Of a DNA stretch of 64,000 bases, positions 59,047-60,455 are shown in pieces. The notes under the pieces were generated by a model. It was not told where the DNA came from. It saw nothing but the letters and a program-made list of their open reading frames with translations, and did not search any database. Made by a program: the position numbers and the translations under genes. Within the stretch, counting starts at the first letter, position 1, and every line of letters begins with the position of its first letter. The stretch is from Yuukianura sp. NJ FZ-2021 (Eukaryota): positions 7,378,001 to 7,442,000 of the forward strand of contig CM102287.1 in NCBI GenBank assembly GCA_046563655.1. The letters run 5' to 3'.

Positions 59047-60455
59047 CTATCGTCCTTTAAAACTTCGTTCTCCGCGTAGTCGCAGGTCCAGGTCACAAAG
59101 TTGCTCTAGAAATCCGTCGTTTGGAAAAATGGCGCGTTTACTCCTATGAAATAAGTAAAAAATAAGTTTGGAATGCTAGCATGAATTTATCTACTATGAA
59201 TAATATTTATTACATAAATAATTATTATTTATGTAACACTAATCAATTTTCGCTAATTTTACCTAACAGTCCGAATAGCTTCCACTGCAGTCATGTCTTT
59301 CTTGATCATCAAGTACGCCAGCACGAGCGTCGGTGACCTGCTCACTCCCTCCCGACAATGTACTAAAATTTTTCCTGTAAAGCAGGAAAATATTGTAAAA
59401 AAGACGAAATCAAAATTCTGAAAATTTAGAAAATTTTGGCAGAAGCAAAACCAAACTAAAAACCTTGAACATTGGACAAAGCACTGTCAATAAATTCTGT
59501 CGCGTCGAGAAAGAACGGGTGGAGTTGGTAGGCCGTGAGATCCATCGCTGGAATTCCAAAAAATTCGCACTGGAAATTCCGCAAAGCATAAAATTCGGGA
59601 CTAGTGTTGACGTATCTTATGAGGTTGACACCTTGAGCAGCATTCAGCACATGCGTCACTCCCAGCATCTTTACAACATCAACGTCCGTGGCCGTTTTTC
59701 TGTTAATTTTACCATTCGTTAAAATTTTTTTTCGATGATTTAAATTTCGAATCGGAGGGTGATTAAATCTAAAAATTTGAGATGCTGCAACTTTTTTCTC
59801 AAAAATGAAACCAGAAAGCTAAAAAGCAAAACCACACAAAAACCAAATATGGAGAAAAACTTTAAAAATAGAAAGTACTTACCTCCATTTTCCAGCGCTT
59901 CAGCAATGAATCCAGAACTCTCTTGAAAGAATCTAAAGATTGGAAAGCGTCTCTCATCGTTAGCTTGAATCCCAACAAACTTAATTCGGTCAAGGTCATA
60001 GAAGCTGCTCTTCGTTAGTACGCAACCGCCACAGTTATGTTTCAACAGGCACGAAGTACAGGCAGAAGCACTGTTCAAAATGTGGCTGATCCCTTCAGAA
60101 CGCAAAGTTCTTAAGCTCAGAGCAGTTGTTCTAAATTGGCAAAAAAAGCAGGAAACAAAACAAACAGATTGACCAATTTGAAGAATTTACAAACACGGCA
60201 TAAAATTTGCAGCTCTAAAAGTGCAGCATCTCAAATAAACCGAAAAATGGCTCAGGAAAGTTGAGTTATTTCGGTTTTTCAGAAAAACTTGAAAAATTTC
60301 ATATTTCAATTTCAATTTTATTTTCCTTACGCATCTCCAATGTAAATTCCAGGATAGACTTCATCATACGGATTTGACGGTGGAGTCCAACCTACTGCCA
60401 GTATATCCCGAAGGTCGCCGATTGTATATCCATGACGTCTGCTCATGGCACCCAT
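59047..60455 (-). CDS. Atypical dual-specificity phosphatase, DUSP3/VHR-DUSP13-like, with two alternative exon-2 copies
   Basis: Exon 1 60455-60331 ([13 protein letters not shown]); exon 2a 60130-59883; exon 2b 59699-59464; exon 3 59374-59263 (catalytic [19 protein letters not shown]); exon 4 59143-59047 ([11 protein letters not shown]). Confidence 0.93.

Follow-up and report, generated by a model that had tools for sequence, protein, structure and literature searches.

Results

A phosphatase gene with two homologous middle exons

The window (the whole 64,000-nucleotide stretch of Yuukianura sp. NJ FZ-2021 DNA that was analyzed) contains, on its minus strand, a compact four-exon gene of 1.4 kb that encodes a VHR/DUSP3-type phosphatase and has two copies of its middle exon, 2a and 2b. 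The coding part of the shared exon 1 (125 nt; 60331..60455) runs from the ATG to the residues YIGD, and a further, noncoding exon upstream is suggested by an acceptor-like TTTCAG near 60477. Exon 2a (248 nt; 59883..60130), the first copy, is of the TAL[SC] type and has a pyrimidine-rich TTTAG acceptor and a strong GTAAGT donor. Exon 2b (236 nt; 59464..59699), the second copy, has a weak AACAG acceptor without a pyrimidine tract and a weak GTTTTT donor, and it encodes a 2-residue insertion before the Asp loop. The shared exon 3 (59263..59374), with a Pfam DSPc score of 49.2 bits (over the cutoff), carries at 59360-59334 the catalytic loop HCREGVSRS, which matches the HCxxGxxRS(T) motif as set out in PMC5008780; the coding part of the shared exon 4 (59047..59143) ends at the stop codon.

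A recheck directly on the minus strand bore out the exon coordinates, phases, and frames given in a first-pass annotation of this DNA. All introns are GT-AG and 89 to 200 nt long, with 183 nt between 2a and 2b. Both middle exons start in phase 2 and end in phase 1, so that exons 1, 2a, 3, and 4 form an open frame of 193 amino acids and exons 1, 2b, 3, and 4 one of 189, with a common stop; inclusion of both middle exons at their normal sites leads to a stop after 133 amino acids, and inclusion of neither leads to a stop after 78. The two exons are intact, as had been claimed, with open frames and GC contents of 0.44 (2a) and 0.46 (2b), next to 0.47 to 0.48 for the three shared exons and 0.19 to 0.30 for the four introns. 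Upstream on the same strand lies a multiexon C2H2 zinc finger gene (62151-64000) that ends about 1.7 kb before the phosphatase ATG, and downstream lies a large multiexon gene (53190-56650, minus strand) with open frames of 464 and 171 amino acids, neither of which has a Pfam match. The last intron of the phosphatase gene contains an AT-rich hairpin with a perfect 13-bp stem (59210-59236).

The two exons encode the same segment of a VHR-like enzyme

VHR/DUSP3 was the top PDB match for each exon alone, and the match was better for exon 2b (E value, 1.4e-10) than for exon 2a (E value, 3.9e-6). In the PDB alignments of both exons, the stretch after LNAA aligns with the VHR loop that bears Phe68 and Met69. 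The general-acid Asp codons, at 59956..59958 in exon 2a (QAND) and at 59540..59542 in exon 2b (PAMD), both on the minus strand, align with VHR Asp92, in a column that is Asp in 376 of 377 segments. Pocket-wall loop and Asp loop lie in the duplicated middle exon and the CX5R loop in the shared exon 3, in agreement with the first-pass annotation. The products, of 189 to 193 amino acids, consist of the catalytic domain only, without a MAPK-binding domain, and are nearest to the VHR group; the Atlas neighbors of the related Orchesella protein carry the name DUSP3-like. Judged by sequence, the gene encodes a VHR/DUSP3-like atypical DUSP, with predicted phosphatase activity on pTyr and pSer/pThr. 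Exons 2a and 2b each matched the genome once, at this locus, which was also the best match of a Folsomia 2b-type protein, and no second VHR/DUSP3-like gene was found in the genome with these three queries.

The peptides of 2a and 2b agree in 25 of 85 aligned columns, with a score of 78.5 that none of 2,000 shuffles reached (best, 18), and these are indeed tandemly duplicated homologous exons, as previously proposed. At the DNA level, the best local match between them is only 13 nt; because peptide similarity persists without DNA similarity beyond this length, the duplication is old.

Exon 2a encodes a 13-residue CxxC-x5-CxxC insert (60022..60060, minus strand) in the loop where VHR has Phe68 and Met69, on the wall of the substrate pocket; it is a putative zinc or redox site. 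The motif occurs in 17 of 290 proteins; its 15 distinct forms differ in the residues that separate the cysteines, and all four cysteines are invariant in the seven rows of one alignment. Wherever a carrier is named, it is a springtail, and a tree unites the 12 that it includes in one clade (support, 100/100). In a model of a 2a-type relative (P0173) built from a 65-row alignment, the DSP domain is confident (mean pLDDT, 93.5) and the insert reaches 88 to 89. A model of the Orchesella protein from a seven-row alignment has its best fold match in VHR (TM score, about 0.8), with the insert below a pLDDT of 50.

Both exon types occur in relatives

Among named relatives, those of Orchesella and Allacma, both springtails, are nearest to exon 2a. 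Exon 2a is 79% identical to P0001, 65% to P0004, and 57% to P0173, and exon 2b is 63% identical to P0037, including a 16-residue identical run, and 57% to P0140; cross comparisons of 2a-type with 2b-type segments reach only 29 to 35%. Both exons are therefore kept in relatives, and decay of 2b there, which had been named as evidence that would count against a switch, was not what we found. A word-based protein search with exon 2b returned no relative, and all 2b relatives came from a profile search.

In Allacma fusca, the database holds a protein with 2a, a linker, and 2b (CAG7836177.1) and another with 2a only (CAG7836178.1); their flanks are identical, and both lie on one 7,511-nt contig. 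An intronless contig from a relative of Allacma (L026) has the order exon 1-2b-3-4 and is 83% identical to Allacma in exon 1, 97% in exons 3 and 4, and, in the middle, 83% to 2b versus 29% to 2a. The 1-2a-3-4 form is found in an intronless contig from an Orchesella-like species (L025) and in four further continuous proteins (P0172, P0173, P0175, and P0182) on contigs of 0.9 to 1.3 kb. Exon 1 of the window gene is 60% identical to that of L025 and 55% to that of L026. In barnacles, the Amphibalanus model KAF0295848.1 contains both segments, the RefSeq protein XP_043193804.1 contains the first alone, and an intronless contig (L029) contains the second type alone; a model from the ostracod Darwinula (CAG0899138.1) again contains both. 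Since genomic copies are interrupted by introns at the corresponding positions, we read the intronless contigs as spliced transcripts. On this basis, each exon type was seen spliced alone between exons 1 and 3 in relatives (L025, L026, and L029), and to this extent the splice switch proposed in the first-pass annotation is supported; since the contigs come from different species, the two isoforms were not seen together within one springtail species.

The pair is not universal in springtails. An earlier metagenome scan gave no matches, and the best 80 of 212 metagenome loci included one genomic springtail copy and no locus with both exons. This copy (L027, 894-1750) has exon 2a only, with the same intron positions and a 69-nt intron before exon 3, which indicates that the pair can be resolved or lost. 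Orchesella and Folsomia have 2b-type genes with flanks of their own (P0262, P0265, and P0258), and because the flanks differ, the 2a-type and 2b-type proteins of Orchesella are products of separate genes. Together with L027, these genes suggest that, in some lineages, each splice form has come to be encoded by a gene of its own.

Age of the duplication

Two full copies of the segment, without a catalytic loop or an exon 1 equivalent between them, were found in 3 of 277 proteins, namely those of Allacma, Amphibalanus, and Darwinula; the remaining rows with repeats were due to read-through of an intron, to partial copies in amphioxus, and to fusions in vertebrates. A 2a-type segment precedes a 2b-type segment in all four species, including that of the window. 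The spacing from a conserved Tyr to the Asp is 15 instead of 13 residues in 16 of 377 segments, which comprise all 4 second exons, 11 other 2b-type segments, and 1 fish segment but no first-type segment.

Two trees, based on about 80 columns, part first from second exons, with support of 95/80 in the first and of 92/74 and 91/76 in the second. The first tree gave long-branch warnings; the second dropped Gigantopelta, L028, and Amphiura and added 12 rows. Chelicerate and damselfly proteins group with the first type in the trees. A sister relationship of the window exons 2a and 2b was rejected (p-AU, 0.00017), and the AU tests did not reject a duplication confined to springtails (P = 0.37) or to the barnacle (P = 0.20). 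The sequences place the duplication before the split from Allacma; it probably also predates the crustacean-hexapod radiation, and the trees favor one old duplication, short of proof.

A candidate stem that encloses exon 2a

Intron 1 contains a docking-site-like element (60217..60236, minus strand) and intron 2 a selector-like element (59775..59794, minus strand) that can pair with each other; 60236-60222 pairs perfectly with 59775-59789. The resulting stem of 15 bp, which extends to 20 nt, encloses exon 2a; in its paired state, the exon 1 donor would be separated by 94 plus 75 nt from the 2b acceptor. The duplex of introns 1 and 2 had an energy of -28.9 kcal/mol, compared with -15.5 (standard deviation, 1.9) for shuffled sequences, none of 40 being as low; this was the best of nine region pairs. 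A perfect match of 15 bp or more arose in 11 of 5,000 dinucleotide shuffles, and matches of 14 or more were absent from 633 other slots in the window and from 551 slots in other loci of the same genome. In eight of eight folds, the 12 core pairs had probabilities of 0.95 to 1.0; taken over the entire region, folding is only marginally more stable than in shuffles (z score, -1.57). An origin of the arm as a dispersed repeat is ruled out, as its 14 nt have only four exact matches in the genome, two of which are the arms themselves.

No second stem was found around exon 2b: the duplex of introns 2 and 3 had an energy of -9.6 kcal, and 39 of 40 shuffles were as low; that of introns 1 and 3 was also no better than shuffles. 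In L027, which has 2a only, the search for a stem match gave no stretch longer than 7 nt, which fits, but weakly. Another pairing, of 60221-60206 in intron 1 with the start of exon 2a (60092-60106), encloses the 2a acceptor in the folds and was discarded, since 7 of 40 shuffles had equal energy.

Steric exclusion requires fewer than 50 nt between the upstream donor and the branch point, according to PMC5740500. We consider this explanation unlikely for the 183-nt intron: the closest AG upstream of the 2b acceptor is 114 nt away from the 2a donor, which makes a branch point near the donor unlikely. The first-pass annotation had called the exclusion obligate on grounds of frame. Early stops do follow from joining both exons or neither, but this frameshift argument is valid only for homologous splice sites, and obligate exclusivity is not proven, because two cryptic acceptors in the 2a-2b intron, both overlapped by the intron 2 arm of the stem, are in frame. 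Exon starts at 59790 and 59784 would give open double-inclusion products of 302 and 300 amino acids, respectively. Such an acceptor is no signal by itself, as 872 of 2,000 shuffled introns also have one. Upstream of 2b there is also a pyrimidine-rich AG at 59768, and joining it to exon 1 would yield an in-frame 2b form with 23 additional residues (212 amino acids). The open frame upstream of 2b was not taken as meaningful, since 235 of 2,000 shuffles were as good.

Discussion

Our results indicate, with a probability that we put at roughly 0.8, that this locus is a true exon switch in which homologous, mutually exclusive middle exons give rise to two complete enzymes. Either exon would supply the pocket-wall loop and the Asp loop between the shared N-terminal exon and the shared CX5R exon, and the two enzymes may differ in substrate specificity. 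The catalytic Cys, Arg, and Asp are kept, as in VHR (DUSP3) and the DUSP13/26/27(29) group (PDB entries 1VHR, 3F81, and 1J4X). The springtail gene departs from VHR in having two alternative copies of the middle segment, with the four-cysteine insert at the position of Phe68 and Met69 in one (2a) and the 2-residue insertion in the other (2b).

It would be improbable, in our estimate, that exon 2b is a recently silenced relic and that only the 2a isoform is made, as in L027. The splice sites of 2b, without a pyrimidine tract and with a GTTTTT donor, would suit such a reading, as would the existence of a 2a-only gene in another springtail and the failure of the word-based search to find relatives; the nearest spliced form is only 43% identical to the window 2b, and no spliced transcript was found with a middle segment close to it. 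GTTTTT is usable in springtails, though, because L027 uses it before exon 3. A relic is also hard to reconcile with an exon that is open, has coding-like GC content, keeps its Asp, shares a 16-residue identical run with P0037 at 63% identity, and is closer to VHR than 2a is. With the exon and Folsomia queries, no other 2b-type gene that could have taken over its role was found in the genome, and the stem would serve a purpose only where 2a is left out.

We consider it slightly less probable still that the exons are not strictly exclusive and that a substantial fraction of transcripts retains the pair by way of an in-frame acceptor further upstream, yielding a protein of about 300 amino acids with half of the domain duplicated. 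The acceptors at 59790 and 59784 would permit this, and database models from Allacma, the barnacle, and the ostracod do contain both segments. Nevertheless, such acceptors are frequent in shuffled introns (872 of 2,000), the linkers in those models (32, 4, and 2 residues) are unrelated to each other, as expected of gene prediction patches, the two segments never occur together in the three intronless DUSP3-like contigs from arthropods (L025, L026, and L029), and a duplicated core segment with a single catalytic loop would be unlikely to fold usefully. It seems very improbable that exon 2b is part of an independent transcript or gene that starts from a promoter and first exon of its own and shares exons 3 and 4. 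There are precedents in the 2b-type genes of Orchesella and Folsomia (P0262, P0265, and P0258), which have their own flanks, and in the vertebrate DUSP13 locus, where two phosphatases arise from separate reading frames (PMC11274236). Here, the intron between 2a and 2b measures only 183 nt, and its one ATG lies 16 nt upstream of the acceptor; a search of the window revealed neither another exon 1 nor another exon 3, and L026 and L029 join the shared exon 1 to a 2b-type exon. A first exon private to 2b, which the first-pass annotation had likewise named as counting against a switch, thus has no counterpart in these data.

For the exon switch, we marginally favor a scheme in which exon 2a, with its strong splice sites, would be the default and the weak exon 2b would be skipped. 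Pairing of the intron 1 and intron 2 arms would loop out 2a and leave the exon 1 donor about 170 nt away from the 2b acceptor, while products with both exons or no exon at the normal sites would be lost through their early stops. Mutually exclusive homologous exons, whether enforced by frame or guided by RNA pairing, are already well known as a device. In one human survey, 377 clusters (60%) have lengths not divisible by three, and its main text mentions no DUSP (PMC5740500). In exon 4 of Drosophila serpent, which consists of two duplicated exons, one stem pairing loops out the first exon and a second stem surrounds the second exon, and both stems are conserved and were tested (PMC4691838); in exon 6 of Drosophila Dscam, docking-site pairing guides the choice among mutually exclusive exons (PMC6071210). 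As in these two genes, an element after the shared upstream exon would pair with an element between the variants so that the first variant is looped out. Unlike in serpent, only the upstream candidate stem was found, in one species, and frame incompatibility would serve as a second safeguard.

Two CxxC pairs are a usual pattern of zinc ligands. We lean toward the possibility that, next to the active site, the four invariant cysteines of 2a hold a zinc ion or are joined in redox-sensitive disulfides and that the 2a form would thereby differ from the plain 2b form in its substrate preference or its sensitivity to oxidants. In DUSP12/YVH1, the zinc-binding domain is separate and C-terminal and has a role as a redox sensor. 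Like that enzyme, the 2a product would combine a dual-specificity phosphatase with a Cys-rich, potentially zinc-binding module, but here a 13-residue insert lies inside the catalytic domain and is present in one splice form only. If real, such a metal or redox element would be of a kind new to DSP catalytic domains.

CG7378 is presumably the fly counterpart of this gene. We found no description of the exon pair in the literature, CG7378 included, although the fly gene might appear in the tables of the 2013 fly survey of mutually exclusive exons or in the supplementary tables of PMC7954323. Few homologous exon switches affect catalytic residues, with nine such events in the latter survey, for example fly CG42249, and the gene described here resembles them in that the switch would exchange active-site residues while the fold is kept. 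It also resembles the locus of DUSP13A/MDSP and DUSP13B/TMDP in giving two related VHR-group phosphatases (PMC11274236); there, however, two whole reading frames use separate exon sets, whereas here the two products would have the same N terminus and catalytic loop and differ by a single internal exon.

The gene amounts to a natural swap experiment, with the same N terminus and catalytic loop combined with two pocket walls and two Asp loops. To our knowledge, little is understood of how atypical DUSPs select their substrates. With its compact size, two variants, and one clear stem, the locus would also lend itself to work outside insects on how RNA structure directs the choice of exon. What makes the gene notable is how old the duplication probably is, together with the candidate stem and the four-cysteine insert of springtails, none of which was mentioned in the first-pass annotation. 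We tentatively offer a broader scenario, against which the odds still run: a switch in the catalytic domain of arthropod VHR might be as old as the crustacean-hexapod radiation, its first exon might have gained a zinc or redox module in springtails, the intron stem might toggle between a metal- or redox-gated and an ordinary phosphatase, and some lineages might have split the forms into separate genes.

The database models in which both exons are fused (P0169, P0241, and P0003, from Allacma, Amphibalanus, and Darwinula) are probably annotation artifacts, so that the gene models of at least three species would be wrong at this place. RefSeq isoform labels suggest that automated annotation may already hold both barnacle forms. 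A DUSP3 model from the amphioxus Branchiostoma lanceolatum (P0023) contains three partial copies of the segment, followed by a single catalytic loop, and an independent exon duplication in amphioxus is possible.
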